A stretch of DNA of 64,000 bases, taken from the IMG/VR virus record IMGVR_UViG_3300045988_054118, positions 1-64,000 of that record; one strand, written 5' to 3'. This DNA comes from a virus. The notes under the pieces are model-generated. The model was not told the origin of the DNA, did not search any database, and saw only the letters and a list, made by a program, of their open reading frames with translations. How positions within the stretch are numbered: the stretch's first letter is position 1; each line of letters starts with the position of its first letter. This document shows positions 1-18,765 of the stretch, piece by piece. The translations under genes were made by a program, and so were the position numbers.

Positions 1-12
1 CTCTTCCGATCT
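1..12. other. Residual Illumina adapter (CTCTTCCGATCT) at contig start; marks an assembly edge, not biology
   Basis: Exact match to the 3' end of the TruSeq universal adapter, read directly from positions 1-12. Confidence 0.7.
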
Positions 13-177
13 GTTCCTAAATATTCTCCAACTAGAGCATCTACGTGTTTCTTTAATAAAGGCGTAAACTCTACCGAAGTGGGGCTACCTATTCCGAAGT
101 TTTCTTCCAGATAACGGAACTATTCAGGATCTCTTTTACCATTATAATAATTATAAGCTTTCTGTAACTCATACTTA

Positions 178-459
178 TCATATACAAGTTCCGCAATAGC
201 CTCGTTTGTCTTGTCTATCAATTCCTTCTCTTTCATAACATAAATTATGTTGTTCTGGAGGAAGTTTAGTAGCGTTATAATACTTAACTCTTTGTAACTT
301 CCTACTTCTTAATTCTTCCTTAATAAATGGCAGAAATTCTTCGTCTGGTAAATCTGCTATTATTACTAATGGCATTTCTGACCTATCAAAGTTAAAAGAG
401 ACTTTATACCCAACTGGGTCTAAACTCTCAATATCTAGTCCGCCTATATACTCCATTTT
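178..459 (-). CDS. Hypothetical protein downstream of TerL (start uncertain; the upstream part of track ORF 178..639 overlaps the TerL 3' end in another frame)
   Basis: ORF ending in TGA at 178-180; the TerL frame continues to TGA at 428-430, so the ORF's N-terminal ~60 codons are probably not translated. Confidence 0.35.
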   Translation of the reverse strand, partial: KMEYIGGLDIESLDPVGYKVSFNFDRSEMPLVIIADLPDEEFLPFIKEELRSRKLQRVKYYNATKLPPEQHNLCYEREGIDRQDKRGYCGTCI

Positions 460-2791
460 GTACAAGTCCCTCATATATTCTAGGATCACTTGTTTCAACT
501 CTGTATGGGTCATCATATTCGTTTCTTTGCATATTAAGTTCAGGAGTTTTCTTAGTTGGAATAACTCCAAATCTTTTAATTCCTCTCTCGTCGTAATAGT
601 AACCAAAATCTTGGAACTATTCAACTTCTTTCTCCACAAGTACGGGCTGTCTTCCTGATAGCTCTTGGTCTGCCAACTCAGTCATACCTACAGCGGCTAC
701 AATATCATACTTACCCTTATTTTCATCATTATATGCAGTAAACTATTCTAGCATTTCTTCGAACCATATAGTATGGCAATAGTCTTCTATAAAGGCGGCT
801 GTTAAATCAGTATGCTATTCGATTATAGTTTTTGTAGCAGGAGTTCCATACTATTTAGTAGTTCCATTTCTAACGTCAGTTAGAGTAGCTCTTGGGCGCT
901 TCATAAAATAGTTAAGGCATCCTTTTTCTCTAGCCCAAGTAACCATACCCATACGAGTAGCTTCTATATTTATTTTACAATTATAATAGCGAGCTAAACA
1001 CATAGCTATTTTATAGGCTTCTCTGATGTCTCCAGGTCTATCCTTGTACATAGCAACATACTGAGGGTCATTCATACCAAACGCACGTTTCTTAATCGTT
1101 ATGCAGAAATCAGACGGGTCTCTGGTTTCCTTAGAAGTCTAATTCGCTCCAATATCAATACCGTCTATACCTGCTACATATAAGTCTCGCATCTCTTTAT
1201 AAACTGGAACTTCAAAATCCTAGCCATTATCTTCTGCCTCCTATCTAAGCTTTTCCATTTGTTCTTTATATAAGTCAGACCATATTGGATGCTCTAGAAT
1301 TTTTACTTTGCCATTGCTGTTAGGAATCCATTTAAAACCATCAATATTATCCTAAGTATGTTTATTATTTTTGTAAAAATAATCAATATAACCACATTCG
1401 GGTCTTGGGCCAATTTGTTTAAGTCTTATATTAGCTATCTATTCGGCAACTAAAATTTTATTAAACTTATTAACACCTTCTAGATTAAATGCTTCTTCTG
1501 CATTCCAACAACGTTCAGCGCATTTCTTTAGGTAGTCTTCTGGTACAACTAACAGATTATCTCGCTCCTCCTATAAGAATTTCTTATATTCCACAGTATT
1601 ACATACTCCTCTGTGGTCCATAAATTCTGGATTCAAAGATTGTATAAAGTATGGAATAAAGAATCCACTCTCTATAGTAGTCCCATCCTAAGTCCAATTA
1701 TGTCTAAATGGAAGAATCTTATATGCTCTTGGATTATAGTAAATCTTTTTTAAGCCCTCTAGAGGAGCACCCATATCACCGCCAGTACCTCCAAACAACA
1801 TTGTTCCACGAGGCATACCTTGAACTTCACAAAGTTCTTGACCTTGTACCACAGCGGTATCAAGTCCAGGCCAGGAACCAGCTTCATCATATATTAATAA
1901 ATCTACACGGTCTCCACGAATGTTAGATGGTTTAGCTCCGTTAATTGCTACAACCTCAGATTTAAATCCTACGTCTTCAAACTAACCATTTATTTTGATT
2001 TGTTTACCTGATTTCTTTCTCAAATCCTGGTCAATAAGTCGCAATTTAAAAAATCCTCCTCCAGTACAGGTATTTAAGAATGTAAGAGCATTGTCAAACT
2101 TACTAAAGGTACCCTTAAGGAAGGTATCATTAAAGCAAGTAATCATAACCCTACTTCTTCTAATAACAGAGTACATACGAGCAGAAAGAGAGGCGTTTAT
2201 TTCAGAGAATCCAATAGAACGAGCTTTCATTAAAGCTGCGTGCTTGTGTAGCACCCTAGCCATCTATAGATAATGAAAGAACATATAATGTGATGCAAAG
2301 AATATTGGGAAGTCATTATCAGTACCCTCACCAGAGGCTTTCTACTAGTCAATAGTAGGTAACTAATAGAAATTTAAGAAGAAGTAATTATCTCCAGTAA
2401 TGGTGTATCCATTAACTGTCATTCCATACTTACATCTTCTATATTGCTCTTTCCAAAATTCGTTGTACCGCTTACTATCTCTAAGGTAGGGACAGTATTG
2501 ACCAGTTCGTTTATATACTTCCCTAGTCTCGGTAAACCAATCTGGATTAAAGTCCAATCCATGAGTTTCGTCAATAGGTCTGTATCCAGTTATTTCATAA
2601 GATAAGGTAGGGTCAAATACTTCTATTTTATCTCCTATTTTAACATCCCAATAGTCAGAATTTCTGACCCTTTCCTCTCTTATTTTCTATACTAGTTCTC
2701 TAGCTTCTTTAGCATCCTCTTTCTATTCTTTTTCTCTTACCTAATCTACAATATTCTATATTTCTTCAGGTAATATCTTTTTTCTTGGCAT
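428..2791 (-). CDS. terL: Terminase large subunit (TerL), translated with TAG read as a sense codon (probably Gln); ~787 aa
   Basis: Continuous frame from ATG at 2789-2791 to TGA at 428-430 once TAG is read through (>15 in-frame TAG). Track fragments 2363..2557 and 851..1075 lie in the same frame. The N-terminus reads like a TerL ATPase (…NPDWFTETREVYKRTGQYCPYLRDSK…) and the C-terminus like an RNase H-like nuclease (AGIDGIDIGANQ…MYKDRPGDIREAYKIAMCLARYYNCKINIEATRMG). Confidence 0.75.
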
Positions 2792-2793
2792 AA

Positions 2794-3354
2794 TTAAAAG
2801 TCTCCTGGGTCAAAACCATCCACAGCTCCAGCTCTAACAGTAGATTGTTCAGTAAGTTCTTTCTTAACCTAGTCTTCTAGTGTTATGAGTTCTTCATGAA
2901 CTTTGTGAAGGGTAGCCATTTCCTTCATTACTTTTTCAGCCTGGAATACTGGCTTGCCGTTATTATCACGCTCATTTAAATCTACAATAGTTTCGAAATA
3001 ATCAATAAACTAGTCTGCAGCTCTTTTAGCTGCTTCTAGTAATTTTATTGACTTGTTTGAATCTTGTAACGCTCTGTATTTCCTACAAGCTTCTCTAAAT
3101 ATAGGGTCATTAAATTCTGACTCTGTCAATCCAGAATCACTAATAGCTTCGTCATGTCGTTCATGTTCCGAATACTAACTGTACGGACTTTTCCAGTCTA
3201 TAGCTAAATAAATGTAAGATAGTTCTCTAGTAGCTCTATCCTTTTCTGCAGATTTATCCCTCTAGATTAAAGCCTTAAATTCCTTAACTAGCAATATCTC
3301 TGGTTCATTTATTTCTAGCTATTTAGTTAAAGTGTTATAGTTAAATACATTCAT
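2794..3354 (-). CDS. Hypothetical protein upstream of TerL, recoded with in-frame TAG (small terminase subunit would fit by position only)
   Basis: ATG at 3352-3354, TAA at 2794-2796; several in-frame TAG codons; protein-like translation (MNVFNYNTLTKQLEINEPEILLVKEF…). Confidence 0.5.
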
Positions 3355-3391
3355 AATCATTAATCATTATCATACACATTAGATAATCTTA

Positions 3392-3970
3392 TTATTTCTT
3401 TTTCATTTTGGAACCGCACTTATTGACTTTCATTTTGGAACCACAAGCGTCTTTCTTAGCATATTGTTTTCTGTCAGGAACCCATTTTCCTTCCTGGAAA
3501 TTACCCTTATGTCCCTTATTGGCCATAGTTTCCTAATCATTGTATTTATTGATTGATATAGAATCTCTTGAGGCTTCGTCTCTAGCAGATTTCATATCTT
3601 TCTTATACTAAGCTCTTCCAGCCTTAAATTTATCAACTTCATTAGCTTTCTTAGTAACTTTAGTTCCTTTTTGTGCTTTCTGGCAAGCTTTACAGATTCT
3701 ACCGCCTTGCTTAAAATATACAAGCTCTTCTCCTTCTGGACATACTCCTTTTAGCTTCTTATAATACTCAAGCTTAGCTCCAAGCCTAGCCATTACTCCT
3801 CCTTGCATTTTCTGCATAAATTCCTGATACTTAGCTTTAATGCCGTCTTCTCCTAATTGTTCAGCATAAGCTTGTAAATCCTATTCAGATTGTACTTGTA
3901 TTCCCTACGCAGCGGCATCTTGTATTAGATATGCCATAAATGCTTTTTGTAATTCTTCCTAGTTAGCCAT
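3392..3970 (-). CDS. Hypothetical Lys/Cys-rich protein, recoded (in-frame TAG); includes track ORF 3608..3817
   Basis: ATG at 3968-3970 (overlaps the upstream TAA as TAATG), TAA at 3392-3394. Track ORF 3608..3817 ends at a TAG and the reading continues protein-like through it (…KFKAGRA-Q-YKKDMKSARDE…CGSKMKVNKCGSKMKKK). Confidence 0.55.
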
Positions 3971-4194
3971 TACTCTTCTACTTTAATTAAATCCTTAGTA
4001 TTAAACACTGCTTCCTACATAAGTCCGGAATCAGTAAACCATCTACATCTTAATCCTCGTAATCCTTGGTTATCTTTAAATAAAGCTGCTTCTCTTCTTA
4101 GAACAAGCATAACTGGAGAATGCATTACTTTACACTACCGTAAAGTAACACAATCCCCAGGCTTAAAATAAACTTTTTCATCAATTGTTTCCAT
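3970..4194 (-). CDS. Hypothetical small protein, recoded (2 in-frame TAG)
   Basis: ATG 4192-4194 to TAA 3970-3972; METIDEKVYFKPGDCVTLRQCKVMHSPVML…. Confidence 0.45.
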
Positions 4195-4783
4195 ACTTCA
4201 ATTCGTTTCTTCTTTCAGTTAGCTTTTCGTTAACTACAGCCATAATTCTGTTCTCATTAACTACAACAAATCCAAACTTGTAGAACGGAACCATGCACTC
4301 GCTAGCTATTGTATAGAATACTATATCTCCAGGTTTTAGGAACTCACACTTGTGCCCGACCTCAATAACAGTACCCACTTTAATAAATTGTTGTTCTTCT
4401 TCTATTTCTCCTGTTTCATTAGATTTATATGTTGGAGCAAATCCACCTAAGTCTGTAATTAATCCACTCTTAGTAGTTTTAATTTTTTGAAACGGATTTT
4501 GTTCGAAAGGTTTAATTAATGCATACCCATACATAGGCATAATTTCTACACCATTCATATCCTCAGATAATGATTTGGCGTAAGATTCTAAAGCTGCATT
4601 ATGTTTAGAGAATTTATCTTCTAATTCATCTACTGCTGTATTGAATCTTTCCTGTTTTTCTCTTAATAAAGTTTTATCTGCAGCTTCTCCATTTACTATA
4701 AGGTGCTGTCCTGTACCTTCCATACCAGTTATAGCTAGTGCTAGTTTCTCATTACTGTTTAATTCTGTTCTTAAAGTTTCCAT
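4181..4783 (-). CDS. Hypothetical protein; the C-terminal half resembles a GroES / gp31-like co-chaperonin fold (inference)
   Basis: Standard-code ORF of 200 aa. C-terminal pattern IKP…K…SGLI…(mobile-loop-like)…KVGTVIEVG…LKPGDIVFY resembles Cpn10. Confidence 0.4.
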   Translation of the reverse strand: METLRTELNSNEKLALAITGMEGTGQHLIVNGEAADKTLLREKQERFNTAVDELEDKFSKHNAALESYAKSLSEDMNGVEIMPMYGYALIKPFEQNPFQKIKTTKSGLITDLGGFAPTYKSNETGEIEEEQQFIKVGTVIEVGHKCEFLKPGDIVFYTIASECMVPFYKFGFVVVNENRIMAVVNEKLTERRNELKYGNN

Positions 4784-4791
4784 AATTCATT

Positions 4792-5130
4792 TTACCATTT
4801 ACATAAATCACAATGTTCATCTTCTATTCTAGTTTTGTTCTCTAGTATACAACCACATTCCTCACATACTTCCCCAAATGAAGTCTGTAATTTATGAGGA
4901 CAAGTATTACAAATATTTAATCTTGTGGTTGCTAAATCTTGATTAATTCCAAATATATGGAAATATATACTCTTCAATATTACTAAAGGTTTAGTAAATA
5001 TTGCTTTAATCCATTTCTTTGACATCTTTTCAGTAGGTTCTTGAGTCATAAGTATATAAGCCTTAGTAGGGTTAGCCATTACTGGAGTCCCATATAGTAA
5101 TAAATTATTTACCATTTCTTCGCAGGACAA
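4792..5130 (-). CDS. Cys-rich small protein (paralog of 5109..5324), putative Zn-binding
   Basis: C-terminus CNTCPHK…CEECGCILE…HCDLCKW shares its pattern with the neighbouring ORF. Confidence 0.5.
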   Translation of the reverse strand: MSCEEMVNNLLLYGTPVMANPTKAYILMTQEPTEKMSKKWIKAIFTKPLVILKSIYFHIFGINQDLATTRLNICNTCPHKLQTSFGEVCEECGCILENKTRIEDEHCDLCKW

Positions 5131-5324
5131 TGCTTCTTCTCATTAGGTATCTTTAATTCCAGTAGACATCCGCATCCTTTTATATATCCTTCTTTTGGAC
5201 CAATACTTATGTCATTGTTTTCTGGATTTAAATACAACTGTCCATTACATATTGCATCTTCTTGATTACATATTGGACAGCGTCTACATATTTTCCATCT
5301 TTCTTCTATTTCCTCTAGTGTCAT
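5109..5324 (-). CDS. Cys-rich small protein (paralog of 4792..5130), putative Zn-binding
   Basis: CRRCPICNQ…CGCLLE…HCPAKKW; same motif order as the neighbour. Confidence 0.5.
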   Translation of the reverse strand: MTLEEIEERWKICRRCPICNQEDAICNGQLYLNPENNDISIGPKEGYIKGCGCLLELKIPNEKKHCPAKKW

Positions 5325-5326
5325 AA

Positions 5327-6241
5327 TTAATATTCAATGCGTTGACGTTTCTTTTTATTTTCTGCCAATATAGATTCTTTCTTGTAAAAAGAAAGCATTC
5401 TTATTACTTCATCTTTTAAATATGGTAAGTGATATACTGTCATGTTATCACTGTGGTCGAAGTGTACTAAAACTAAGTCTTCAATTTCAAATTCTGGGTT
5501 TTTCTTCTGAATCATCCAGGCGTAAGTACTTAGCTGAAGGGCATAATGCCAATAATTAACATCATCTAAATTATTTAGAGGATACTTCATCTTAACTGAT
5601 GTCTTAGTTTTAGAATTAAAGAAGCTCTTTGTTTCTATTTTTTTATTAGTCTTCCAGTCACCAATAATTATCTTATTACCTCTTTTAACTAATAAGTCAA
5701 TTTGTCCAGCTATTCTTAGTTTTCCGTCCTCAGATACTCTAGAGATTAGATACTCAGGATATACCCCATTCTCCAAATCTAGATTGTTATAGTCTTTTAT
5801 ACACTCAAACTTACCACCTATTTGATATTTACTTAGATCTATATCCTTCTTCTTTTTGTAAAAAGAGTTTTCCAAATCTGCATGGATTCTAGTTCCTCTC
5901 TCGCAAGAGTTTCTGTTCTCCATATCCCATGCATCTAAGATAGCTTGTTGTTCTTTATTAAACTCGTCTTCTGTAATGTTATGAAGTTCAAGTAGAACTT
6001 TGTCAAATTTCTTAGTATTCAGCAGAGATTTTTTCTCGATAGCCCAATCTTCTTTAGGTAGAAGTTTCTCTAGTGCTTTATAAGCTGACCAGAACTCTTT
6101 ATCAAAGGGTTGGGTGAAAGAATGAATTAAAGTCGTTACAGATATAAATTTCTGTTCTGGCTTTGTAACATCATAATAAATATGAGCTTCCTCTTCGAAA
6201 GCTATGTTCCCATTTTGTTTTGTAATTTTACTTTTGTCCAT
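5327..6241 (-). CDS. PD-(D/E)XK nuclease of the RecB/Cas4-like family (no Fe-S Cys cluster)
   Basis: Motifs IAGQIDLL…IIIGDWKT (D…D/E-x-K) and ALQLSTYAWM (QxxxY) are typical of RecB-family nuclease domains. Confidence 0.6.
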   Translation of the reverse strand: MDKSKITKQNGNIAFEEEAHIYYDVTKPEQKFISVTTLIHSFTQPFDKEFWSAYKALEKLLPKEDWAIEKKSLLNTKKFDKVLLELHNITEDEFNKEQQAILDAWDMENRNSCERGTRIHADLENSFYKKKKDIDLSKYQIGGKFECIKDYNNLDLENGVYPEYLISRVSEDGKLRIAGQIDLLVKRGNKIIIGDWKTNKKIETKSFFNSKTKTSVKMKYPLNNLDDVNYWHYALQLSTYAWMIQKKNPEFEIEDLVLVHFDHSDNMTVYHLPYLKDEVIRMLSFYKKESILAENKKKRQRIEY

Positions 6242-6355
6242 TAGTCATAATTCATTTAATCATTTATCACATTTATCTATATTTATTTGATACTTTTCAA
6301 GTATATTAATATTCTTTGTAAGATACAAATCAATAAATAATACATTATATTAAAA

Positions 6356-6697
6356 ATGTCTAATATGACAAAAATGGTAACATTTGGATGTCCAATTTTT
6401 AAAAACGGGTCAGGCATTCATATTAAAGAGAAAAACAAAGGTAAATTTACTGCCTCTGCTAAGGCTGCAGGATAGTCTGTACAGGAACATGCTAAATCTG
6501 TACTAAACAATCCTAATGCTACTCCTCTTCAGAAGAAGCGTGCTAACTTTGCTAGAAACGCGGCTAAATGGAAACACGAAGATGGAGCTAAGATACATAA
6601 ACCAAGTGGACATAGATCTATTCTAGATAATGGATGGATTCCTACTACTAGATTAAAGAAAGGAAATTATGGATTAATTAAAACAAGAAAGCAATGA
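6356..6697 (+). CDS. Hypothetical basic protein on the plus strand inside the late module, with an in-frame TAG at 6473-6475
   Basis: ATG 6356 to TGA 6695-6697. The translation stays protein-like across the TAG (…SAKAAG-Q-SVQEHAKSVLNNPNATPLQKKRANF…). Confidence 0.5.
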
Positions 6698-6772
6698 ACG
6701 CTGTAGTTAAATTAATTAAAGAATTTATACTTAAGATATATCTTTATTTACTATTTATATTTAATAAGTAAT

Positions 6773-6964
6773 ATGGACTATAATAGAGCAACTCTTTATG
6801 CGGCTACTGGTCGTACTTTATTACTCCCTGGCTGGAAAGGGTATTTTTATTGGGACTATACTAAGAATGAATTAAATTTTAGAAATGGAGACTATCATTT
6901 AGATAACAAATAGCTCAAGGAGAAAGGGGTTATGGAACGTAATGATTGGTATTATATAATATGA
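6773..6964 (+). CDS. Hypothetical small protein with an in-frame TAG at 6911-6913
   Basis: ATG 6773 to TGA 6962-6964, which overlaps the next ATG as ATGA. Confidence 0.4.
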
Positions 6965-7353
6965 TAATTAAAAATAATATTATACCGTTTGGAGGTTATA
7001 AAGTAATTAATCTGTTTGGATTAATATTTACTAAGTCGGATTTGACTGATGAGGATAAGAATCACGAGAATATCCATTCAGTATAGATTTTGGAATGTGC
7101 AATAGCGTTTGCAATACTTATATCTATATTATTTGGATTAGAGTGGGTATGGTTAGCTATTCCATCTTTCTATATCTGGTATGGATTAGAGTATTTAATT
7201 ATACGACTATTAAGACTTAAAGATTCTCAAAATGATTGCTACAGAGATGTAAGCTTTGAAGAAGAAGCTTATATGAATGAAGACAATTTACAGTATCTAG
7301 AAGGATAGAGAAAGATGTTTTCATGGATAAAATATCTAAAAGTTAATGCATAA
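6961..7353 (+). CDS. Membrane protein with two TM helices and a holin-like topology; in-frame TAG at 7084-7086 and 7306-7308; includes track ORF 7090..7308
   Basis: ATG 6961 to TAA 7351-7353. Hydrophobic stretches AIAFAILISILFGLEWVWLAIPSFYIWYGLEYLII. The track ORF is exactly the TAG-to-TAG segment. Confidence 0.5.
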
Positions 7354-7356
7354 CAA

Positions 7357-7401
7357 AATAGGCGAACTTAGACAATTAAGTCTAGGCTCGCCTATTTTTA
7401 T
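7357..7401. terminator. Bidirectional hairpin between convergent genes (nested stems AATAGGCGA…TCGCCTATT, then T-tract)
   Basis: 9-bp outer stem with an inner TAGAC/GTCTA stem, followed by TTTTTATTT; lies between the plus gene ending at 7353 and the minus gene ending at 7398. Confidence 0.6.
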
Positions 7402-7601
7402 TTACTATTATACGTACAAGTGATTCTGTTTGGCTCTTCCCACCAAGGTTTATCTGAAAGTGGAGTTCTGATGCTATTGGGCCAATTTATAATTGGAGTA
7501 GTTTCTTCTACTATAGCCTCCATTATTTTAAATAATGTATCCAAGTCTAGCTCTGGAAGCAGCTCATGAATATTAGTTATTGTTTTCTTATAATTTATCA
7601 T
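7398..7601 (-). CDS. Hypothetical protein
   Basis: Standard-code ORF with a TAA stop. Confidence 0.45.
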   Translation of the reverse strand: MINYKKTITNIHELLPELDLDTLFKIMEAIVEETTPIINWPNSIRTPLSDKPWWEEPNRITCTYNSK

Positions 7602-7808
7602 ATCCTTAAAGTGTTGTTAATAATTACGTAGTATCTACTGACATATTAGTACGATACACTTAGCTTATTTAAGTTGTCTAGATAATCTAAGAACCATTGT
7701 TCGTTTTGTTTTCCTTCTTCTACAATAGTATTAATTAAAGATTCTATAGCTAATAGTGTTATTTCTGCTAGTTCCTCTAATTCCGATTTAGTAAGTTCGT
7801 TATATTTT

Positions 7809-8123
7809 TCAATCAAGTTTAACATAATCCATCCAGTCTTTTATATATGATTTACATTCTTCCAAATCTGGATAGATACTTGTTATAGAGCATCCAGTTT
7901 TCGGATTTTTAAAGTGGTGCATCTTAGCCTCTTCTTTTTTCTCCTCTTCTGTATTTCTATTTAATGTTCTATTCCAATAGTTGTACTTTTCATCTAACAT
8001 TTCCATATCACATTCCTCTAATATTTTCATATTAGGGTTATTCATTATCTTGTCGTATTTTCTCTTTAAATTAGAGACTTTGACAACATCATTTCCATTT
8101 AATACAACTGCACACTGTTTCAT
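7809..8123 (-). CDS. Hypothetical protein
   Basis: ORF with a TGA stop. Confidence 0.45.
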   Translation of the reverse strand: MKQCAVVLNGNDVVKVSNLKRKYDKIMNNPNMKILEECDMEMLDEKYNYWNRTLNRNTEEEKKEEAKMHHFKNPKTGCSITSIYPDLEECKSYIKDWMDYVKLD

Positions 8124-8347
8124 TTCAATACCTTATAAGTACATATCTTGCCTATCTGTTTTCCTTGAATTGTTATTTGCGGAAGAAAATAGCAGGCTTG
8201 ATTTTCAAATTCTTGAGGTACAAAGATATAATCAAACTTACTTCCAACTACCTTCTCACAAACTTTATTCCAATCGTCTCCCTCTTCTATAATAAGAGTT
8301 TTAGCTCCTGTTGGAGTTACTACATAATTCTCATTTAATTTTATCAT
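8120..8347 (-). CDS. Hypothetical protein (start moved to the internal Met so it does not overlap the tRNA)
   Basis: The track ORF 8120..8422 N-terminus overlaps the tRNA at 8365..8436; internal start MIKLNENYVV…. Confidence 0.4.
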   Translation of the reverse strand: MIKLNENYVVTPTGAKTLIIEEGDDWNKVCEKVVGSKFDYIFVPQEFENQACYFLPQITIQGKQIGKICTYKVLK

Positions 8348-8364
8348 AACTATTAATTTTGGCG

Positions 8365-8436
8365 TTGCCCTACTAGGATTCGAACCCAGACTAAATGATT
8401 TAGAGTCATCTGTGCTGACCATTACACCATAGGGCA
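8365..8436 (-). tRNA. Suppressor tRNA, anticodon CUA (reads UAG); Gln-tRNA-derived
   Basis: Cloverleaf read on the minus strand: acceptor TGCCCTA/TAGGGCA, D-stem GTGT/GCAC, anticodon stem GATGA/TCATT with loop CTCTAAA (anticodon CTA), T-arm CTGGG-TTCGAAT-CCTAG. The architecture is nearly identical to the tRNA-Gln(TTG) at 23373..23444. Confidence 0.8.
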
Positions 8437-8441
8437 GTAAC

Positions 8442-8561
8442 TTATTTCTCTTTTAGAGATTTATTTTCTGCTGCCAATTTCTCTAGTTCTTTTCTTAATT
8501 GTTCATTTTCGTGAAATAAAGCCTGCATAGTAGCGTTGATATTAGCTAATAGTATTCTCAT
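8442..8561 (-). CDS. Small coiled-coil protein (39 aa)
   Basis: MRILLANINATMQALFHENEQLRKELEKLAAENKSLKEK; ATG 8559-8561 to TAA 8442-8444. Confidence 0.3.
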   Translation of the reverse strand: MRILLANINATMQALFHENEQLRKELEKLAAENKSLKEK

Positions 8562-8574
8562 TTGAGCAACCTAT

Positions 8575-8976
8575 TCATACATAAGCTTTCAGTTGTTCAA
8601 TTCTCTTTTTAGCTATATCTGACAATGCCATTTTGAATTTAGCAATACCAGCTCTTACTGTTTCTAACTTGCCGCTTTCTAAGCATTCTTGTATTTTATG
8701 AACTTCAAGCTCTCCTAGATATTCGCATACATCTATAAATAAATCATCATCTAAAGATTCTAAATATTTCTGGAATTGGTCTACCTCTTCATTAGCTAGA
8801 CAGCTTTCTTCCTTCTATCTTTCATAAGATATTAATAAGAACAAAGAATCGTCGGCAGATTCGGACTTAATAGTTAGCCCATTACCAGACATATAATATT
8901 CTTGATTCGTATTAATTGCCTCAACTAGCTATTTAAACTAGTCCTAATTTAACAATGTTTCTAAGTCTGTAATCAT
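8575..8976 (-). CDS. Hypothetical acidic protein, recoded (4 in-frame TAG); first gene of the leftward late operon
   Basis: ATG 8974-8976 to TGA 8575-8577; MITDLETLLN-Q-D-Q-FK-Q-LVEAINTNQEYY…. Confidence 0.5.
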
Positions 8977-9294: not shown

Positions 9295-9741
9295 ATGACA
9301 CTCGAAGAATTGAAAGACCAGAACGTAAACGCAGTAGAAAGAGCTAAGGCAGTAGTATCAGCATTGGGACTGAAAGGTGATGAACGCTCAGTTGTTGTCG
9401 GCTTGTCAAAGGGCGATAAGTTTAAGTTGGTAGCAATGAACAAGGTAGATTTACCTGCAAATGCCAACCAACCAAATCAAAGCAACTTTACTCCAATCAC
9501 ATTCAGCACTGACACAGGTGCAACCATTGGTGCAAAACACTTTGCGGGCGTAGAAATCGACGACGATGCTCCGGCAATCGGTTCAACTCCGTTGGAAAAT
9601 GCCGTTTTCCTTGTTTATTGCATTGACCACAATGTAACATTTAAGGTAGACAAAAAGGTAACGGAAGACATCGAAGCTACCGCAGACCGCCAAGCCTACA
9701 AGAAAAATACTTACAAGCTGGTAGTGGAAGACTATGATTAA
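9295..9741 (+). CDS. Hypothetical protein (locally GC-richer)
   Basis: ORF of 148 aa, TAA stop. Confidence 0.5.
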   Translation: MTLEELKDQNVNAVERAKAVVSALGLKGDERSVVVGLSKGDKFKLVAMNKVDLPANANQPNQSNFTPITFSTDTGATIGAKHFAGVEIDDDAPAIGSTPLENAVFLVYCIDHNVTFKVDKKVTEDIEATADRQAYKKNTYKLVVEDYD

Positions 9742-10704
9742 AAGATTGGGGAGAAATCCCCTTTCTTTTACATACAAATAAGCTTTGTAGAAATGGACAT
9801 AAGAAAAAAGTTTAAGACTATAAAGTGTTTGTATAATTGGGGCATAATCTATGACCCAAAGACTAATGAAAAGTTAAATTTCAAAGCCAAACGTGTTTAT
9901 TGCGTAACTTCTTGGGCTTGGATTATGACCTATCAAAAGTCAGAAGAAGATATCCCTGAGATAATTAGGATAGTCTTTGTAGATTAACTCTAAGGTACTA
10001 TGAGTTTTAAATAAAGTGCCCAACATGAACCCCATCATCGGAACGTTGGTTAACGGGGAAAACAACAAATCAAATCAAAGTTTTTGTTTAGTTTTAGGAT
10101 TATATCTGGCAGCTTGGAAAGACAAGCAAAATCTTTATACCTATCTGCTAATAGGTTTAGTGTTCAACGCGAAAATTCGGTAAAGGAGAGAAATTGTCCA
10201 CTAAAAAGACCCTCAATTTCCGGACTTTTTCCGATTTTCAAAAAATCCGCCAGAGTAGGAGTTATATAGCTCACACTCTCTATGGACATTATTTAGTATT
10301 TAGCCTATAAAAAGGCAACAAAAAGCGAGGCTACGCAGAAGAGCCTAACACCAAAAATAACTGCTACAAATTCTATGTGCATATTCGCAAACTTGAGCAC
10401 TATAGGATTTAGGTTGAGCTGTAAGGATTGGTCACTTATAGCAATATTATGAGTACTGCTGATATGTCAGTGACCGTACATATCACATATAAAATATGTT
10501 ATACAATTATGTTAGAAGTTGCCAGGTCTAAGAAGCCTGATTAAAATCTCTAGATAGTAAGAGAGAACCTCATAAGGGTTCATTTTCCATCTCGAATCTA
10601 TTCGCAAGTTTTGAGATTAGCTACCTCAGAATTTAGTGAACGTTGTATGTCTGGAAAACATACTAAATAATCTCCTATCTTATACTAGTTGTCAAGATAG
10701 GATT

Positions 10705-10775
10705 TCCCCATTAGTATAATGCTATTGCGCCTTCCTCTAAAGAAGGAGATTCTGGTTCGAGTCCAGAATGGGGGA
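10705..10775 (+). tRNA. Second tRNA-like gene with anticodon CUA (anticodon loop CTCTAAA); D-arm non-canonical
   Basis: Acceptor TCCCCAT/ATGGGGG (one G·U pair), anticodon stem CCTTC/GAAGG with loop CTCTAAA, T-arm TCTGG-TTCGAGT-CCAGA, discriminator A. Confidence 0.55.
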
Positions 10776-11192
10776 ACTTGGTATTTGAAGACTACAACTA
10801 CTTGTAGACTCTGTTGCAGTTAAAGATTATAATGGGTACGCCCTGAGACTAATGCAGAGCATCTCTTATGAATAGAGGTGTCTTATCGTGAGATAAGGCA
10901 AAGTATTGTGAGATTGAGAGAATTACTAGCTAAAATGTTAGAAGAAGACCCAGATTCAAGTAGCAATATCTACAAAGAAATATGGGGAGCTTATACTGCT
11001 GGGATGAACTCCTTGCTCGAGTAGCAACAATTCCAAGCTTGGTGAATTAAAACTAGCTAACCTAATTACTCTTTATAAGGTTGAGAATGTAAAAAGAGAA
11101 TTGGAATGGTAAGCCCATCTCCCTTCGTCCTTTGCTGGTTTAGAAGTGAAACAGAAACCAGCACTTTTTAGTAACTTATAAACTTTTATAAT

Positions 11193-11672
11193 ATGAATAC
11201 ATTAGCATTAGATCATGTAAACAAGCGCGCAGAATTCGTAATGTCGTTTACTATTCCTTTCAAAGCAGTTGAAGATCCAACGTCGCAGGCCAAGTGCTAC
11301 AGTCCGCATGAAGTAATTATGGCATGGCGAGAGGTGTGCATCAAAGCATTACGAATGAGAATCGATGCCTGTATGGAAATGTTGTTCCGCAACAAGGACA
11401 GAGTGATAGGCTCGGACGAACGTGGCGTTTTGTTTAAGAAGAAGAATGGAAACATTCACCACTTTTCTCATGCTAGCTGTTTTGCTATGGAGGCTTTCAT
11501 AGAGATATTGGAAGAAGCAGAGAGTGCCGGGGACATAACTTTCGATGCTCTTCAAATACAGCAACTGATAAAGGCTTTGTACTGGATTCCAGACGAACTG
11601 AAGAACGATCATCAGGGAATAGGTTTCGGAGAACTAATTGACTGCCTGCTCTGCATTTTAGCAACTCTCTGA
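11193..11672 (+). CDS. Hypothetical protein
   Basis: ORF of 159 aa. Confidence 0.5.
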   Translation: MNTLALDHVNKRAEFVMSFTIPFKAVEDPTSQAKCYSPHEVIMAWREVCIKALRMRIDACMEMLFRNKDRVIGSDERGVLFKKKNGNIHHFSHASCFAMEAFIEILEEAESAGDITFDALQIQQLIKALYWIPDELKNDHQGIGFGELIDCLLCILATL

Positions 11673-12186
11673 TAAACGAGTAGGAACTATCGTAATGATA
11701 GCTCTAATAGTTTCATCATTTAATTAGCATATGAAATATAAGATTGAATTTAACTATCGTTACGGTAAAGACTATGTATACTGTAATGAGTACCATGAAG
11801 ATGAGCGGTTCATACAGCCACTTAATTCTAATGGTAAACCCTTATGTACTATTGCAAAGACTAATATATTATCTATTAGAGAATGCAAATAACGCCAATG
11901 CTATAAAGATTGGCAAATTTAAGATTGCACATGGAGATCGAACGCTGAAACATGTGGTAACTAAATAGGAGAGGTCTGGTAGGTTCAAGGTAGTTCCGCT
12001 TAGTGTTTGCCTACTAAGTATCACTACACAGTCAGTTGGAAGACTGACATTTAAAAACTTAATAACTTCCCAAGACATTGAGGGCACCAGTTTCTTTACT
12101 ATAAAATGCGCGCAAACTACCAAAAGGTGTGAGTTGCTGCTTGTAAAGTTTTAGGTGTAAAATGCGATTAATAAAAGAAAAAGATT

Positions 12187-12780
12187 ATGGAACAGTATTT
12201 AGATGCAAAAATTAAGAGATTTACTCAAAAGCAATTATTCAAGAAAATAACTAAAGTTAAAACTATGCTAGGTTTAGGAGGATTACATCCTGAGAAATAC
12301 CTAGAAGTTGTACCCGAACATAAAAATTGTGTCCTAGTTGACTTCAATCCAGCAGATGCATTAGTAAGAAGAAATTCTCTTATTGGAGAGTTTGATTTAC
12401 TTACTAATTCTCCAGCGGAGAGAAGTCCGCTTAACTTCGTTGATTGTGATTTCTGCAAGTCTATTATAAATAATGGAGCAGATTTACTATATATTTATAC
12501 GAAGATGCAGCTTTCTCCAATTAGAAACAAGTATATCACATTTACTTTTAGTTGTAGAACTGCGGGAGACGAGAGAACAATTGAGTGGTTGGCAAAGAAT
12601 TTCCCAGAACTTGATATTCCAAGAAATTACGTGTTTATAAATGATACAAGATGTAAGGAGATTGGATATCGTCAGTATGTTAAACGTATGTATGATCCAA
12701 CTAGAGACAGATTCTTAGACATATACAAATACAGAGATTCTGGAGATAACATGATTACCGGACTAATTAAAATCCTCTGA
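12187..12780 (+). CDS. Hypothetical protein
   Basis: ORF of 197 aa. Confidence 0.5.
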   Translation: MEQYLDAKIKRFTQKQLFKKITKVKTMLGLGGLHPEKYLEVVPEHKNCVLVDFNPADALVRRNSLIGEFDLLTNSPAERSPLNFVDCDFCKSIINNGADLLYIYTKMQLSPIRNKYITFTFSCRTAGDERTIEWLAKNFPELDIPRNYVFINDTRCKEIGYRQYVKRMYDPTRDRFLDIYKYRDSGDNMITGLIKIL

Positions 12781-12845
12781 TGAGTCTTTGAAAATTAAGA
12801 CGAAACTACCCATCTTTGGGTAGTCAGGATTAAAAAGAAAAAGAA

Positions 12846-13046
12846 ATGAGAAAGTACAACAGATTAAATTGCGATTCAACTGTTCGCGCAAGATTTATAG
12901 ATACTTGGGGACGAGTAATAACTTTAGTCGGAACCCATGCCTTCGAATATGCCATTCACATAGAAGGAGTAAGAACAGTTACTGAAACATTTGAGAATGG
13001 AATATTAGCAAGAAAAAGATTTAACGAATTAAAAAAGAAACCATGA
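12846..13046 (+). CDS. Hypothetical small protein
   Basis: ORF; overlaps the next start as ATGA. Confidence 0.4.
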   Translation: MRKYNRLNCDSTVRARFIDTWGRVITLVGTHAFEYAIHIEGVRTVTETFENGILARKRFNELKKKP

Positions 13047-13276
13047 GAAAGAGATTTAAGATGAGCAGAATTGCTTCATCAGACAACTATGAGTTGTCAA
13101 GAAAGATTCACGCAATGTACCTCCAAAGATTTCACGAGGAGAACATAGAAGTGATTACAGAGATTTCATCTACATTAGTAATTAAAGAACAAAAGTATAT
13201 TCGGGTATTTGGGAAGTTAATTCCTGTTTCCGAAGAAGAATTGAGAATACATAACACTTTAATATCTGTGAAATGA
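13043..13276 (+). CDS. Hypothetical small protein
   Basis: ORF; overlaps the next start as ATGA. Confidence 0.4.
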   Translation: MRKRFKMSRIASSDNYELSRKIHAMYLQRFHEENIEVITEISSTLVIKEQKYIRVFGKLIPVSEEELRIHNTLISVK

Positions 13277-13515
13277 TGGAAGATTTGTTAACAATAGTAA
13301 GATGGGCAATAACATTGCCTGTTTGGTTGCTAGAACATATACTTAAGGCTATGACCTTGATAGTTCTGGTATTGGTAATCATCGTCATGGCGGTATTATA
13401 TCCGCTATTTCGGTCTATCTGGCGTAAGACAGGACAGTCTGTGATTTTTAAGTATGCAACAAAATGGAGAGGAAACTATCCGCTAACCAAAAAAGTATTT
13501 GACTTATGGCAATGA
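13273..13515 (+). CDS. Small membrane protein
   Basis: Hydrophobic stretch WAITLPVWLLEHILKAMTLIVLVLVIIVMAVLYPLF. Confidence 0.4.
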   Translation: MMEDLLTIVRWAITLPVWLLEHILKAMTLIVLVLVIIVMAVLYPLFRSIWRKTGQSVIFKYATKWRGNYPLTKKVFDLWQ

Positions 13516-13792
13516 TGAGAAGAATTACCGAAATAAACGGTGAGATAATTGTGGTAGAAACTATGATTATCGTAGGAGAAATAGTATTAATTACAGTACA
13601 AATAAATGGAGAACTAGTTCGCTATGAAATATTATCTGTTAGACAGTTATGGGAAGGTCGTTAGGGCCTTCTCAAGCTGGTCTGAGGCTAACAAATTTCG
13701 TATAACTAGAAATAGACCAGATTGGAGGATTGTATGACATACATCGTTGTATTTATAATATTAATCATCATGTGGAAAATGATTGAAGACGA

Positions 13793-14752
13793 ATGAAAAC
13801 AGTATTAACCCATACAGGAAAAATCTATGTTGATACAGAACATAGACTAGAGTTCTTAACTGTAGGAGACTATGGTAAGGAGAACAACATCAAGGCTGAT
13901 TTCTTAGGTCTAACTAAGGAAATCAATGGAGTAGAGAATACAGCAGTAGACCTAAGCAAGAAATGGGTAGCAACTATTTCAACTCAGAAAGGCTGTCCTA
14001 TGCATTGTAAATTCTGTGATGTTCCCAAGTTTGGATTCTATGGAAATGCTTCTATAGAAGATATGGATAGACAAATCCGAACTATTATAGAAGGCGAAAG
14101 TGTCAGAGAAACAGACAGGTTTAATGTACACTTTGCTAGAATGGGAGAACCAACATGGAATGATAATGTATTAGCATTTGGACTTGCTCTCAGAGGTGTG
14201 GTTAAGTCTGCAGGGTTAATAGCTAAAACTGTTCATCCAGTAGTTTCCACGATGCTTCCGAAAGCAAATAATAAGCTTGGAAACTTCTTACAGGTTTGGT
14301 GTAGCATAAAAAATGAGTTCTACAATGGAGAAGCAGGCTTACAGTTTTCAATCAATTCTACAGACGATGAACAGAGAAACGAGCTGTTTGACTCTAAGAG
14401 TTTGTCACTAGCACAAATTTCCCGGTTGGCTGACGAGTTACCAATGCCAGTAGGCAGAAAGTATACTCTAAATTTTCCAGTAACCTCACAAACTATTCTC
14501 GATGCGAAGGAATTGTCAAAGCTATTTGATAGGGAGAAATTTATTGTTAAAATCACTCCTATACATGAAACAGCTTCTGCTATAGAGAATGGTTTCCAGG
14601 TAACTGGATACTCTGATTATGACGTTTATCGTCGCTTCGAACAACCTTTATTGAAAGAAGGTTGGGATGTTATAGTGTTTGTTCCATCTAAGGAGGAAGA
14701 TTCTGACCGAATTACTTGTGGGAACGCACTAATCTCTGAAGAAAAGATTTAA
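13793..14752 (+). CDS. Radical SAM enzyme, function unknown
   Basis: CX3CX2C motif (GCPMHCKFCDVP) about 70 aa from the N-terminus; 319 aa. Confidence 0.6.
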   Translation: MKTVLTHTGKIYVDTEHRLEFLTVGDYGKENNIKADFLGLTKEINGVENTAVDLSKKWVATISTQKGCPMHCKFCDVPKFGFYGNASIEDMDRQIRTIIEGESVRETDRFNVHFARMGEPTWNDNVLAFGLALRGVVKSAGLIAKTVHPVVSTMLPKANNKLGNFLQVWCSIKNEFYNGEAGLQFSINSTDDEQRNELFDSKSLSLAQISRLADELPMPVGRKYTLNFPVTSQTILDAKELSKLFDREKFIVKITPIHETASAIENGFQVTGYSDYDVYRRFEQPLLKEGWDVIVFVPSKEEDSDRITCGNALISEEKI

Positions 14753-14814
14753 CAATTCTTAACTAAGAGAAATCTAGATTATACTATATAATAGTAGGCA
14801 AACTCTTAGTTATC

Positions 14815-14886
14815 CTTTCCTTAGTTCAATGGATAGAACCTCTGTCTTCTAAACAGATAATTCCAGTTCGAATCTGGAAGGAAAGA
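14815..14886 (+). tRNA. tRNA-Arg (anticodon TCT)
   Basis: Acceptor CTTTCCT/AGGAAAG, anticodon loop CTTCTAA, T-arm TCCAG-TTCGAAT-CTGGA. Confidence 0.75.
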
Positions 14887-14893
14887 CTATTAT

Positions 14894-14967
14894 TCTCCCT
14901 TAGCTCAACGGTAGAGCTTTCGACTTTTAATCGAAAGACAAGAGTTCGACTCTCTTAGGGAGAACCA
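14894..14967 (+). tRNA. tRNA-Lys (anticodon TTT), CCA encoded
   Basis: Acceptor TCTCCCT/AGGGAGA, D-stem GCTC/GAGC, anticodon loop CTTTTAA, T-arm AAGAG-TTCGACT-CTCTT, then ACCA. Confidence 0.8.
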
Positions 14968-15519
14968 ACTTTAAATAATTAAGCTATGATAAATGTAGAC
15001 GAATTAAGAAACAAAAAGTAGCTCGGAGAAATAGGAGAGCGTATAGCCATTGGTGAATTATCAAAATATGGATTAGATATTTTATTACCAATGTCTGACA
15101 ATCTACCATTTGATTTTGTTATATATTATAATAACAAGTTTTACAGAACTTAGGTGAAAACTACTGCGAGTAAAACTGTAAATAACTCGTTGAACTTTAG
15201 TTTAACAAGTAATAATTATAACAAAGGGACCGTTCACAAATACAACGAGGATGAAATAGATATTATGATATGTTGCGACCTTCATAACATCTATATATTT
15301 CCAGAATGTGATGTTGCTAATAGAAATTCTATTACTATTAGGGAGGAACCTCCAGCTAATAATTAGACAAAAGGTATAAACTTTGCAAAAGATTGCATCA
15401 TATCTATAGAAAGATTAAATTATACTTTCTCTAAGATAGAGAAATAATTCCCTATTAATAGGGAAGTCTTTTTCTTTTATTCCGCTAGTAAACATTTGTT
15501 GTGAAACACGTGTTTGCAT

Positions 15520-15592
15520 CTGGGTATAGTCGAGTTGGTAAGATGCTACATTTGGGATGTAGAGACCGCAGGTTCGAGTCCTGCTATCCAGA
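15520..15592 (+). tRNA. tRNA-Pro (anticodon TGG)
   Basis: Acceptor CTGGGTA/TATCCAG, anticodon stem CTACA/TGTAG with loop TTTGGGA, T-arm GCAGG-TTCGAGT-CCTGC. Confidence 0.75.
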
Positions 15593-15797
15593 CAAGAAGT
15601 AATCAACATTCACTATTAGTACAGCAATTAGGACTGTAGGGTGCCTTTTAGATGAATCCCTGATTACTCCGATTAACAGAGGCAATGTCCTTAATATCGT
15701 TACCACGCACTGCGGCTATTAGCTGTTAGATGATTTGGGGTGCCAAATGGAAGAACGGTAACAGCTATGTTAATTAGAACGAATCTGTTAATTGTAT

Positions 15798-15880
15798 GGG
15801 AGTGCGCCAACGTTGGAGAGTTGGGCTTGACTGTAAATCAAGTGCCTATGGCTTAGAAGGTTCGAATCCTTCCACTCCCA
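15798..15880 (+). tRNA. tRNA-Tyr (anticodon GTA), class II
   Basis: Acceptor GGGAGTG/CACTCCC, anticodon stem CTTGA/TCAAG with loop CTGTAAA, long variable arm, T-arm GAAGG-TTCGAAT-CCTTC. Confidence 0.75.
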
Positions 15881-15973
15881 CAAATTTAATGAATATGTTA
15901 ATAGGATTTTTAGTATTTATTACTCTAGAAATAGCTATAATAGCTACTATAGGGTTTACTTATTTTCACGAAG

Positions 15974-16345
15974 ATGATAAGAATTTCAAGAATTATCGCA
16001 AAGGAAAGAATAGCTGATTTGTTAGACTTAAATTTCGTGTCTAAGATAGAATTAAGACAGGGAAAACAAGGATTTAATAATCCTGCTATTTGTAGAGTAG
16101 AAATCTATTTACTACTTGAAAACGACAAAGAGTACTTTAACTCCAAAATGACTGATATTATGTCATGGGCACAAAAGAACAAATGTAACATTGCTTTTAC
16201 TACTGCTAGTATGGCTCTCAAAGACGGATTTATTAAAGAATCTGCTTTTGATGACTTTAACTATCCAGTTCCTAAAAAGTATAAGGCATTATGTGATATT
16301 TATTCAGCAAGTTACTTTAATCTATTTAATAGAAGAAAGCTATAA
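15974..16345 (+). CDS. Hypothetical protein
   Basis: ORF of 123 aa. Confidence 0.45.
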   Translation: MIRISRIIAKERIADLLDLNFVSKIELRQGKQGFNNPAICRVEIYLLLENDKEYFNSKMTDIMSWAQKNKCNIAFTTASMALKDGFIKESAFDDFNYPVPKKYKALCDIYSASYFNLFNRRKL

Positions 16346-16502
16346 TGGAAGACAAGTACGAAGGATTATCTGATGAAGAACTTAAAGAGATTTTCGAAGA
16401 TATGGAAGCAGACTATTGGATAGACTACTATCAGTCTCTTTGCGAATGAAACGCAGCAGTTGGCTTTCGGAATCTCTGTCTTAACAAAATGAGTCCGTAA
16501 TT

Positions 16503-16586
16503 GGGATTGTAACCGGTAATTGGTAGCCGCGCAGACTGTAAATCTGCTCTCTTTTGAGACTGGAGGTTCGAGTCCTCCCAATCCCA
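16503..16586 (+). tRNA. tRNA-Tyr (anticodon GTA), second copy, class II
   Basis: Acceptor GGGATTG/CAATCCC, anticodon arm GCAGA-CTGTAAA-TCTGC (identical to E. coli tRNA-Tyr), variable-arm hairpin TCTC-TTTT-GAGA, T-arm GGAGG-TTCGAGT-CCTCC. Confidence 0.7.
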
Positions 16587-17077
16587 CACATTTTAATTAA
16601 TTAGATTATGACAAAAGAAGAAGCAATTAGAGCTATGTCTGAAGGGAAGAAAGTAAGGCATAGATACTTTAGTAAAGACGAATGGGTAACTATAAATTCC
16701 AGCGGACTATATGAGTTCGAGGATGGTATAAAAGTTGACTCATCGTTATTCTGGATGGACAGACAGGATTCCTATTGGAATGATGGATGGAGCTTAGTTT
16801 AACTTTAAATAAGAATAAAAATGACAACGTATGAATACGGAAAAGGATACTTGCCAGAAATCTGGTACTAGTGTAATATTCCAAAAAGAAATTACGCAGT
16901 GTAGGAATGTCCCCATTGTAGAATCGCTCCTGACCCAGACCCTGATGACTGGTTCAATGACGATGATGAAAAAGCGCTTTGTAAAGAAGCTGGAAATAAA
17001 CTAATTGAGGGAATGTTAAGACCTTACGAAAGGGTATTAATTCCAGATTGGTGTCCATTAAAAACTAATAAACAAAA

Positions 17078-17542
17078 ATGAATAGAATTAAGACAAAAGC
17101 CTATCTTGAGGTAACTTTAGAGCAGGCACGCGAATGGTATGAAAGCGGTAATGAAGACTTGAAGAAATTAGCTCTTACTGCATTTAGTGAGGAAATGCTA
17201 ATTCCTTCCTTTAAAGAGATAGTAGAGTCTGAAGAAGATTATGGTTTTTGGAATACATTAGTATGTCCTCCAAGCATGGCAGAACAACTCAGTTCTCTAG
17301 CTAGTTTACAAATAGTTGCTAACTATCTAAATAAAGGATGGATCAAAGCAGAAGGTAATACTGGCTATTTTCTTGGAAAAGGTTCTTCTCTGTCTGGAAA
17401 GACGGAAACTGATATAAAAGGAGTGTACGTCGCCATGCATCAAAATGTAAAGTATCCAGGTGTTGTTTATTTCAGAACTGTAGCTGATGCACAGAAAGCA
17501 GTAAAGATTCTTGGTAAAAAGTTATTGCCATTACTTAAATAA
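17078..17542 (+). CDS. Hypothetical protein
   Basis: ORF of 154 aa. Confidence 0.5.
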   Translation: MNRIKTKAYLEVTLEQAREWYESGNEDLKKLALTAFSEEMLIPSFKEIVESEEDYGFWNTLVCPPSMAEQLSSLASLQIVANYLNKGWIKAEGNTGYFLGKGSSLSGKTETDIKGVYVAMHQNVKYPGVVYFRTVADAQKAVKILGKKLLPLLK

Positions 17543-17548
17543 TTTGAT

Positions 17549-17622: not shown

Positions 17623-17652
17623 CTAATCATGTTTTATTAAATATTATAACGA

Positions 17653-18692: not shown

Positions 18693-18765
18693 GGAGCAGT
18701 CCAGGCTATAGGCTGGTGTATTCTAGCTATATTCTGTGTAATATTGCTTCTTGGTATGATTTTTG

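Follow-up and report, generated by a model that had tools for sequence, protein, structure and literature searches.

Reading of the amber codon TAG as glutamine (Gln, code 15) in late genes is already known from crAss-like phages, the Zeta group included. Yutin et al. (2021, PMC7886860) described Zeta-group phages of 145-192 kb in which TAG is reassigned to Gln mostly in late genes and which carry suppressor tRNAs; TTG(Gln)-to-TTA(Sup) anticodon mutations were also noted. In the work proposing the 'Echekviridae' (PMC12386605), the amber-recoded Zeta phages measure 176-189 kb, have a GC content of ~35% (34.5-35.1%) and possess CTA suppressors. Metaproteomic proof of code 15 in crAss-like phages was brought by Peters et al. 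(2022, PMC9523058), and a timing hypothesis for recoding was put forward by Borges et al. (2021/2022), with replication genes in the standard code and structural and packaging genes recoded. Here we analysed 64,000 nucleotides of viral DNA, positions 1 to 64,000 of the IMG/VR virus record IMGVR_UViG_3300045988_054118 (hereafter the window), in which the gene of the large terminase subunit, TerL, is crossed by many in-frame TAG codons. We consider it very likely that the source of the window is a crAss-like phage with a large genome (about 185-195 kb), probably a member of the Zeta group, which uses code 15, TAG being decoded as Gln by phage suppressor tRNAs in a way that may gate late functions. 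The features on which this reading turns are the following.

428..2791, minus strand: TerL (large terminase subunit), 787 codons with 20 in-frame TAG, ATG start and TGA stop
8364..8436, minus strand: supA, amber suppressor tRNA of the tRNA-Gln type, anticodon CUA (ARAGORN; Rfam tRNA model, 66.3 bits)
10704..10777, plus strand: supB, the other CUA tRNA, of divergent sequence, ~1.4 kb inside the plus-strand block (ARAGORN; Rfam tRNA model, 51.7 bits)
23373..23445, plus strand: tRNA-Gln(UUG), the closest paralogue of supA (ARAGORN)
10514..10676, plus strand: RAGATH-14 structured RNA (RF03145), full length, 162.4 bits for a gathering score of 149.1

This lineage resembles the described Zeta phages in several respects. 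The genomes of the close relatives of the window were measured at 180-195 kb, as compared with the 145-192 kb reported, and the GC content of the 64-kb window is 35.7%, as compared with 34.5-35.1% for the amber Zeta phages of PMC12386605. Both have TAG-to-Gln recoding in TerL, portal and late genes, CTA suppressors, ~20 or more tRNAs, a replication block with a primase of the DnaG family, DnaB and SNF2 helicases and AAA+ ATPases (in the window, Toprim_2 at 51441-52454, DnaB_C at 48344-49438, ResIII/Helicase_C at 46183-47484 and AAA at 24467-25879) and inteins or insertions in TerL, seen here in the relatives. The window differs by its two CTA suppressors, whereas PMC7886860 and PMC12386605 report one per genome, and by the RAGATH-14 RNA beside supB, which is unmentioned there. 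The genome size of the relatives, the replication genes, the tRNA load, the GC content and the recoding pattern agree with the published description, and the phage is probably of the Zeta group. With the crAss-like phages studied by Borges et al. and Peters et al. it shares TAG-to-Gln recoding, standard-code replication genes, recoded structural and packaging genes and a phage suppressor tRNA; however, the present lineage is much larger and distant from them (25-28% TerL identity to classical crAss-like phages), and its recoded genes are interleaved with TAG-free ones and do not form one contiguous unit. A preliminary description of this DNA, made from the letters alone, had proposed amber-to-Gln recoding as in crAss-like gut phages. 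The recoding is borne out by the Gln-like exchange in TerL, the CUA tRNAs and the crAss-type TerL reported below, but the kinship is only a distant one and points probably to the large-genome Zeta group.

We firstly consider the TerL frame. The frame 428..2791 on the minus strand contains no internal TAA or TGA, all 20 interruptions being TAG, and each of the remaining five frames of the same stretch holds 19-94 TAA and TGA codons. The preliminary description had announced more than 15 in-frame TAG codons in TerL, a number that our count of 20 exceeds, and had quoted seven of them at 815-817, 743-745, 617-619, 1139-1141, 1220-1222, 1241-1243 and 1352-1354; these positions are correct and correspond to TerL codons 659, 683, 725, 551, 524, 517 and 480, respectively. 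Read in the standard code, the largest piece of the frame is 107 codons and the list of open reading frames (ORFs) over TerL contains only scraps of 64-93 aa, so that the claimed shattering of the ORF track was found again. Likewise, TGA and TAA are the real stops, as had been proposed, since the genes of the 428-8976 range terminate at TAA (9) or TGA (6). When TAG was counted as a sense codon, the coverage of positions 1-9100 by greedily chosen ORFs rose from 0.51 to 0.90; the control reassignments gave 0.57 with TGA as sense and 0.72 with TAA as sense.

The TAG=Gln translation of TerL matches phrog_6681, a crAss-type terminase profile, with E=1.7e-62 in one stretch (residues 91-712) that covers 16 of the 20 TAG positions, the homology being continuous through them. 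By tblastn the recoded TerL finds crAss-like TerL genes with 25-28% identity over ~80% of the length. The closest TerL in the annotated phage collection is that of MT835470, itself an unannotated record (43% identity, tblastn), no close relative being present there. In the protein database, entry P0001 is 100% identical to the TerL of the window with TAG as Q and belongs to a 90%-identity cluster of 2,365 members. In Pfam there was no match for the recoded TerL, nor for three proteins encoded next to it. This lack of a Pfam match in TerL, together with the shattered standard-code map, is what speaks for nonsense mutations or assembly and sequencing errors, that is, for pseudogenes in a defective or chimeric contig. 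Such an origin is contradicted by the composition of the interruptions (20 of 20 TAG, none TAA or TGA, when the other frames are full of both) and by the continuous PHROG match, as well as by the comparison with relatives and by the two cognate suppressor tRNAs.

The TerL homologues of the protein database had already been translated with TAG as Q; we therefore set them aside as evidence for Gln and compared the DNA of the relatives by codon instead. The relatives comprised 53 IMG/VR loci and loci from Logan, ENA and GenBank, on contigs mostly of 180-195 kb. The codon alignment contained 48 distinct TerL genes (the window and 47 relatives), which gives 940 cells (20 x 47) for the TAG columns of the window. 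TAG was retained in 503 of these cells, and the other codons were CAA (145), CAG (61), GAA (56), GAT (38), then a tail of others. As CAA is two substitutions away from TAG, the exchange between the two reflects more than mutational proximity. When all 73 TAG-containing columns of TerL were considered, Gln made up 32% of the partners against a background of 2.2%, and the profile of the TAG partners, with the candidate residue removed, had a Jensen-Shannon divergence (JSD) of 0.021 to Gln, the next best residue being Glu with 0.136. In the TerL of the 47 relatives the TAG columns are thus sense positions, predominantly Gln, as the preliminary description would have it, and the comparison shows TAG to be a conserved sense codon equivalent to Gln.

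The relatives with a complete frame carry 11-31 in-frame TAG codons in TerL (about 50 independent assemblies), and the length of the frame is 786-788 codons in most of the clade and 763-788 overall. TerL is without TAG only in L001 (45% identity) and L053 (49% identity), the most distant relatives with a complete frame; in these standard-code relatives, 3 of 18 and 4 of 20 TAG columns of the window, respectively, are occupied by Gln. The retention of TAG in 47 distinct relatives from independent samples and the preserved frame length leave the idea of a defective or chimeric contig with a vanishingly small probability; pseudogenes and sequencing errors are excluded.

We then looked for tRNAs able to read TAG. 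ARAGORN detected 19 tRNAs in the window, two of them with anticodon CUA, which were both confirmed by the Rfam tRNA model; the total is 19-21 according to ARAGORN and Rfam. One of the two, supA, is by similarity of the Gln type: it is 78% identical to the tRNA-Gln(UUG) of the window, with the same D and T arms, when any other tRNA is at most 64% identical. It has a U1:A72 pair, and its acceptor pairs 3:70 and 4:69 differ from those of the tRNA-Gln(UUG) paralogue. Across the clade with a supB-type tRNA, supA is 97-100% identical and its anticodon is always CUA; the more distant supA-type tRNAs (65-88% identical) keep CUA too. From its sequence, supA looks like the constrained, principal suppressor.

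A comparable tRNA is supE (glnV) of E. coli, a tRNA-Gln with its anticodon altered to CUA, which inserts Gln at UAG against release factor 1 (RF1). SupE is encoded on the chromosome of a cell with the standard code and suppresses only weakly. SupA seems to be a solution of the same kind, with the tRNA-Gln of the phage itself as its starting point, but unlike supE it is needed for essential phage genes with dozens of TAG codons.

The second suppressor behaves otherwise. The homologues of supB in L006-L054, some of them in genomes with near-identical TerL, have as anticodon CTA, TTA (ochre; 9 loci) or CTG (Gln; L049), or else a malformed anticodon loop (L022, L023 and L031); example loci are L007 69-139, L049 116-186, L022 2174-2243 and L031 2092-2164. 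In the relatives with a UUA form of supB we did not detect recoding of TAA: the late genes keep their lengths and their TAA stops, with no in-frame TAA. SupB looks dispensable or differently used. Hints of a Gln type are the homologue with a CUG anticodon in L049 and the U1:A72 pair.

It is at this point that TAG might be suspected of being a sense codon but not Gln, or not only Gln: Glu, Lys or pyrrolysine, or an ambiguous codon by way of a differently charged supB. ARAGORN labels both tRNAs 'Pyl', although from the anticodon alone; Glu and Lys are the next most frequent TAG partners; in the gene at 8575-8976 TAG exchanges with Glu, Asn and Pro, not with Gln; and supB is without a clear isotype. 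We hold this to be very improbable, given the share of Gln among the partners (32% against 2.2%) and the JSD, which is at least 0.136 to every residue other than Gln. Moreover, supA is a paralogue of tRNA-Gln and supB has a homologue with the Gln anticodon CUG, no pyl genes were seen among the genes scanned, and in other crAss-like phages proteomics found Gln (PMC9523058).

Three side observations concern the tRNA calls. Two tRNA-like sequences were found by Rfam only and were not called by ARAGORN, at 27452-27532 (plus strand, 51.6 bits) and at 24204-24280 (plus strand), the latter a marginal match of 30.4 bits within a spurious-looking ORF with four TAG codons. The TAG-bearing ORF 24138-24467 (plus strand), which overlaps this marginal match, was rejected as a gene. 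The tRNA-Ser(GCU) called by ARAGORN at 22219-22307 is absent from the Rfam list.

The position of TAG in the window was examined gene by gene, with the following features.

3..236, minus strand: start of the portal gene, cut by the window edge, 1 TAG (codon 39)
2794..3360, minus strand: 188-aa gene just upstream of TerL, 5 TAG, phrog_16390 (unknown function)
3392..3970, minus strand: 192-aa gene, 5 TAG, no family match
3970..4194, minus strand: 74-aa gene, 2 TAG, phrog_3261
8575..8976, minus strand: 133-aa gene directly upstream of supA, 4 TAG, no family match
6356-6697, 6773-6964 and 6946-7353, plus strand: opposite-strand genes with in-frame TAG (1, 1 and 2)
4181-4783, minus strand: GroES-like gene, TAG-free
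4792-5130 and 5109-5324, minus strand: two Zn-ribbon proteins, TAG-free
5327-6241, minus strand: PD-(D/E)XK exonuclease, TAG-free
7398-7601, 7646-7825 and 7809-8123, minus strand: three small genes, TAG-free, no family match
9295..63756, plus strand: replication, nucleotide-metabolism and auxiliary block, 49 genes of at least 100 aa
14986..15447, plus strand: recoded nuclease-like gene in the tRNA array, 3 TAG, phrog_5018 (E=6e-20, residues 9-135)
18854..19246, plus strand: paralogue of 14986..15447, 3 TAG, phrog_5018 (E=3e-18)

No in-frame TAG occurs in the 49 genes of the plus-strand block (11,248 codons), of which 35 terminate at TAA and 14 at TGA; compared with the TAG-bearing genes, the difference is highly significant (Fisher P=3e-36). 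The products of this block include NrdD (anaerobic ribonucleotide reductase), DnaB and SNF2 helicases, a Toprim primase, AAA ATPases, Sak4, nicotinamide phosphoribosyltransferase (NAMPT), phosphoribosyl pyrophosphate (PRPP) synthetase, an SPFH protein and an OmpA-like protein. Within 428-8976, seven genes are also TAG-free (4181-6241 and 7398-8123; 917 codons; Fisher P=1e-8 versus the TAG-bearing genes), and the exonuclease has no TAG in 39 of 39 distinct homologues. TAG represents 49% of the Gln-type codons in the recoded genes and 56% in TerL, against 0% in the replication and metabolism genes. It is not used as a terminator: the 64 counted genes all end with TAA or TGA, and at most three low-confidence ORFs (27724-28416, 11744-12160 and 13506-13685) have a TAG a few codons from their end.

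A module-specific distribution of TAG had been suggested in the preliminary description. This is roughly right, since TAG is found in TerL and late genes and is absent from the 49 plus-strand genes, but the module is not contiguous: TAG-free genes are interleaved in it, and two TAG-bearing genes (14986-15447 and 18854-19246) lie far outside the range, on the plus strand. The partition follows gene class, not a contiguous block.

The recoding itself could be real without being a timing device. The suppressors would then serve mainly to corrupt host translation, by read-through of host TAG stops, those of defence proteins included, and TAG would have drifted into co-expressed genes, the gene-class bias being a by-product. 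Such an anti-defence reading was proposed by Yutin et al. (PMC7886860), and there are Zeta phages that keep CTA suppressors without recoding (PMC12386605); in our relatives, supB varies freely, UUA forms included, without matching recoding of TAA. However, a passage from about half of the Gln-type codons (49%, and 56% in TerL) to 0% in the 11,248 codons of early and middle genes is sharper than drift predicts, and the exonuclease remains TAG-free in all its 39 homologues while TerL keeps 11-31 TAG codons. Sabotage of the host accounts less well for this sharp partition than the gating model, and we judge it unlikely.

The exchange of TAG with CAA and CAG recurs in the genes 2794-3360, 3392-3970 and 3970-4194, and also in the plus-strand gene 14986-15447. 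The N-terminus encoded at 3..236 is identical, until the last few residues at the edge, to the 723-aa gene that follows TerL in L012, and very similar to that of L003; this 723-aa gene is identified as portal by a faint P22_portal Pfam match. The portal gene has 28 TAG codons in L012 and L006, and among the closest relatives the counts for the portal and for the five late genes that follow it are 28, 9, 4, 12, 20-21 and 6, which indicates that recoding runs on through the virion block beyond the window edge. In 40 distinct homologues of the gene 2794..3360, TAG exchanges with Gln (46), Glu (16) and Asp (13). At the TAG columns of 3392..3970, Gln occupies 56 of 61 cells with a sense codon, in addition to 9 gaps, and for 3970..4194 the TAG partners in the relatives are CAA and CAG only. 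The exchange of TAG with Glu, Asn and Pro mentioned above for 8575..8976 was observed in 35 distinct homologues. The three plus-strand genes of 6356..7353, for which in-frame TAG codons had been announced, do possess them, at the same positions in 22-52 related loci where these genes are kept; the product of 6946-7353 matches phrog_15610 'protease' (E=9e-32).

The gene 14986..15447 aligns with its paralogue and is conserved in relatives; opposite its middle TAG, L068 has a canonical Gln codon. In the TGA-recoded Agate phage of Borges et al., in-frame stops lie in a homing-endonuclease gene inserted in an early gene, to which the recoded phrog_5018 genes of the window form a parallel. The latter may encode homing endonucleases that are not made before the suppressor has appeared. 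As a side observation, a D...(Q/S)VK motif in the two paralogues suggests a PD-(D/E)XK fold, and the TAG of the catalytic motif is a Gln codon in L068.

The gating model can be formulated as follows. TAG stands for Gln in TerL, in the portal and the remaining virion genes, in several small neighbours and in the two nuclease-like genes, and TAA and TGA are the sole terminators. It would be decoded by supA, the tRNA-Gln derivative encoded on the late strand, and by supB, encoded on the early strand, both with anticodon CUA; the glutaminyl-tRNA synthetase of the host would charge supA, and the suppressor tRNA would compete with the host RF1 at TAG. Since the replication, nucleotide-metabolism and host-takeover genes contain no TAG, the unmodified host apparatus can presumably translate them. 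The full-length TAG-bearing proteins would be made only after the suppressor has accumulated and out-competed RF1, which would amount to a translational gate on packaging and late functions, as in the model of Borges et al.

Several points weigh against this model. Recoding is read here from the DNA sequence. SupA belongs to the late strand and follows a TAG-bearing gene (8575-8976) there, which fits badly with a simple order of suppressor first and late genes second, and on one and the same strand recoded genes are mixed with TAG-free ones. Besides its unclear isotype, supB has no close paralogue (at most 64% identity), and its D arm is atypical. A scan of the 20 largest plus-strand genes revealed neither a release factor nor an aminoacyl-tRNA synthetase. 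Finally, a scan for sigma-70 promoters and terminators around supA and supB did no better than shuffled sequences, with a model that excludes Bacteroidota and phage-RNA polymerase promoters.

The RAGATH-14 RNA ends 28 nt upstream of supB. Among L006-L054, a RAGATH-14-like sequence was observed directly upstream of the supB-type tRNA in 31 of the 31 related loci that carry one, whatever its anticodon, and L010 has the RNA with no called tRNA. By pattern scans of IMG/VR, RAGATH-14 was found in this phage clade only, and a literature search for 'RAGATH-14' returned no paper. RAGATH-14 may act as a leader of the suppressor tRNA or take part in its processing, and the toggling of the supB anticodon between CUA, UUA and CUG suggests a tunable or diversifying element and not a plain spare copy. 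One could go further and propose that two non-equivalent suppressors run the code switch, with RAGATH-14 controlling the transcription, processing or stability of supB and hence the onset of TAG reading; we regard this proposal as speculative and, for now, rather doubtful. If it were true, RAGATH-14, so far an orphan motif, would be the first case of an RNA element linked to a switch of the genetic code.

For annotation, the window requires table 15 or a mixed scheme applied per gene, failing which one loses TerL, the portal and some ten further genes. It provides one more clean example of late-gene amber recoding, with unusually good comparative support and from a very prevalent gut phage, and brings no new principle. 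What is possibly new is the fixed RAGATH-14/supB tandem, the lability of the supB anticodon beside an invariant supA, and the mixture of TAG-rich with TAG-free genes along a single strand; these three could help to test how and when the switch is thrown.

Other observations were made on TerL and its surroundings. The TerL of the window is itself uninterrupted, but in some relatives it is split by large insertions: in L049 and L054 it spans 3.5 kb (match at 10001-13522/13529), L036 is also concerned, and in MT835539 (L002) the match is in three pieces over 4.4 kb. The TerL homologue P0003 has 1131 aa and matches Pfam PF05204, PF05203 and PF14528, which we take to be Hint/homing-endonuclease (intein) domains. 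These insertions would be consistent with the many inteins and introns reported from Zeta-group phages. In another frame of the minus strand, a TAG-free ORF of 153-167 codons (178-681) extends over the 3' end of TerL and occupies the 191 nt that separate it from the portal gene; relatives have a called gene of 87 aa in the corresponding position (L004 12315-12578). Outside the window, L003-L005 encode products of 2123-2170 aa that start downstream of the structural genes; these may correspond to the giant multidomain RNA polymerases, with a DxDxD motif, of the Zeta group.

The stretch between the exonuclease and supA (6300-8100 in the window, 3988-6248 in L003 and 1979-5259 in L004) is a variable hotspot between conserved flanks, and its opposite-strand genes differ among relatives, L004 having for example genes of 644 aa and 379 aa.

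Several other ORFs appeared at first to carry TAG in the plus-strand block. In 26629-27258, 35770-36285, 23315-23785, 41927-42745 and others, TAG is present only in an extension upstream of the likely start. The ORFs 10084-10452 and 11744-12160 were rejected as genes, with near-zero codon scores and no family match, and 16554-16802 was rejected as TAG-bearing, its family match beginning after the TAG.

Lastly, this block encodes, on the plus strand, proteins that are unusual for a phage: an SPFH/Band-7 protein of 652 aa with a long repetitive region rich in Ala, Glu and Lys (20200-22158), an OmpA-like outer-membrane beta-barrel protein with a signal peptide-like N-terminus (37117-38133), and a NAD-salvage pair formed by NAMPT and PRPP synthetase (39993-42745).

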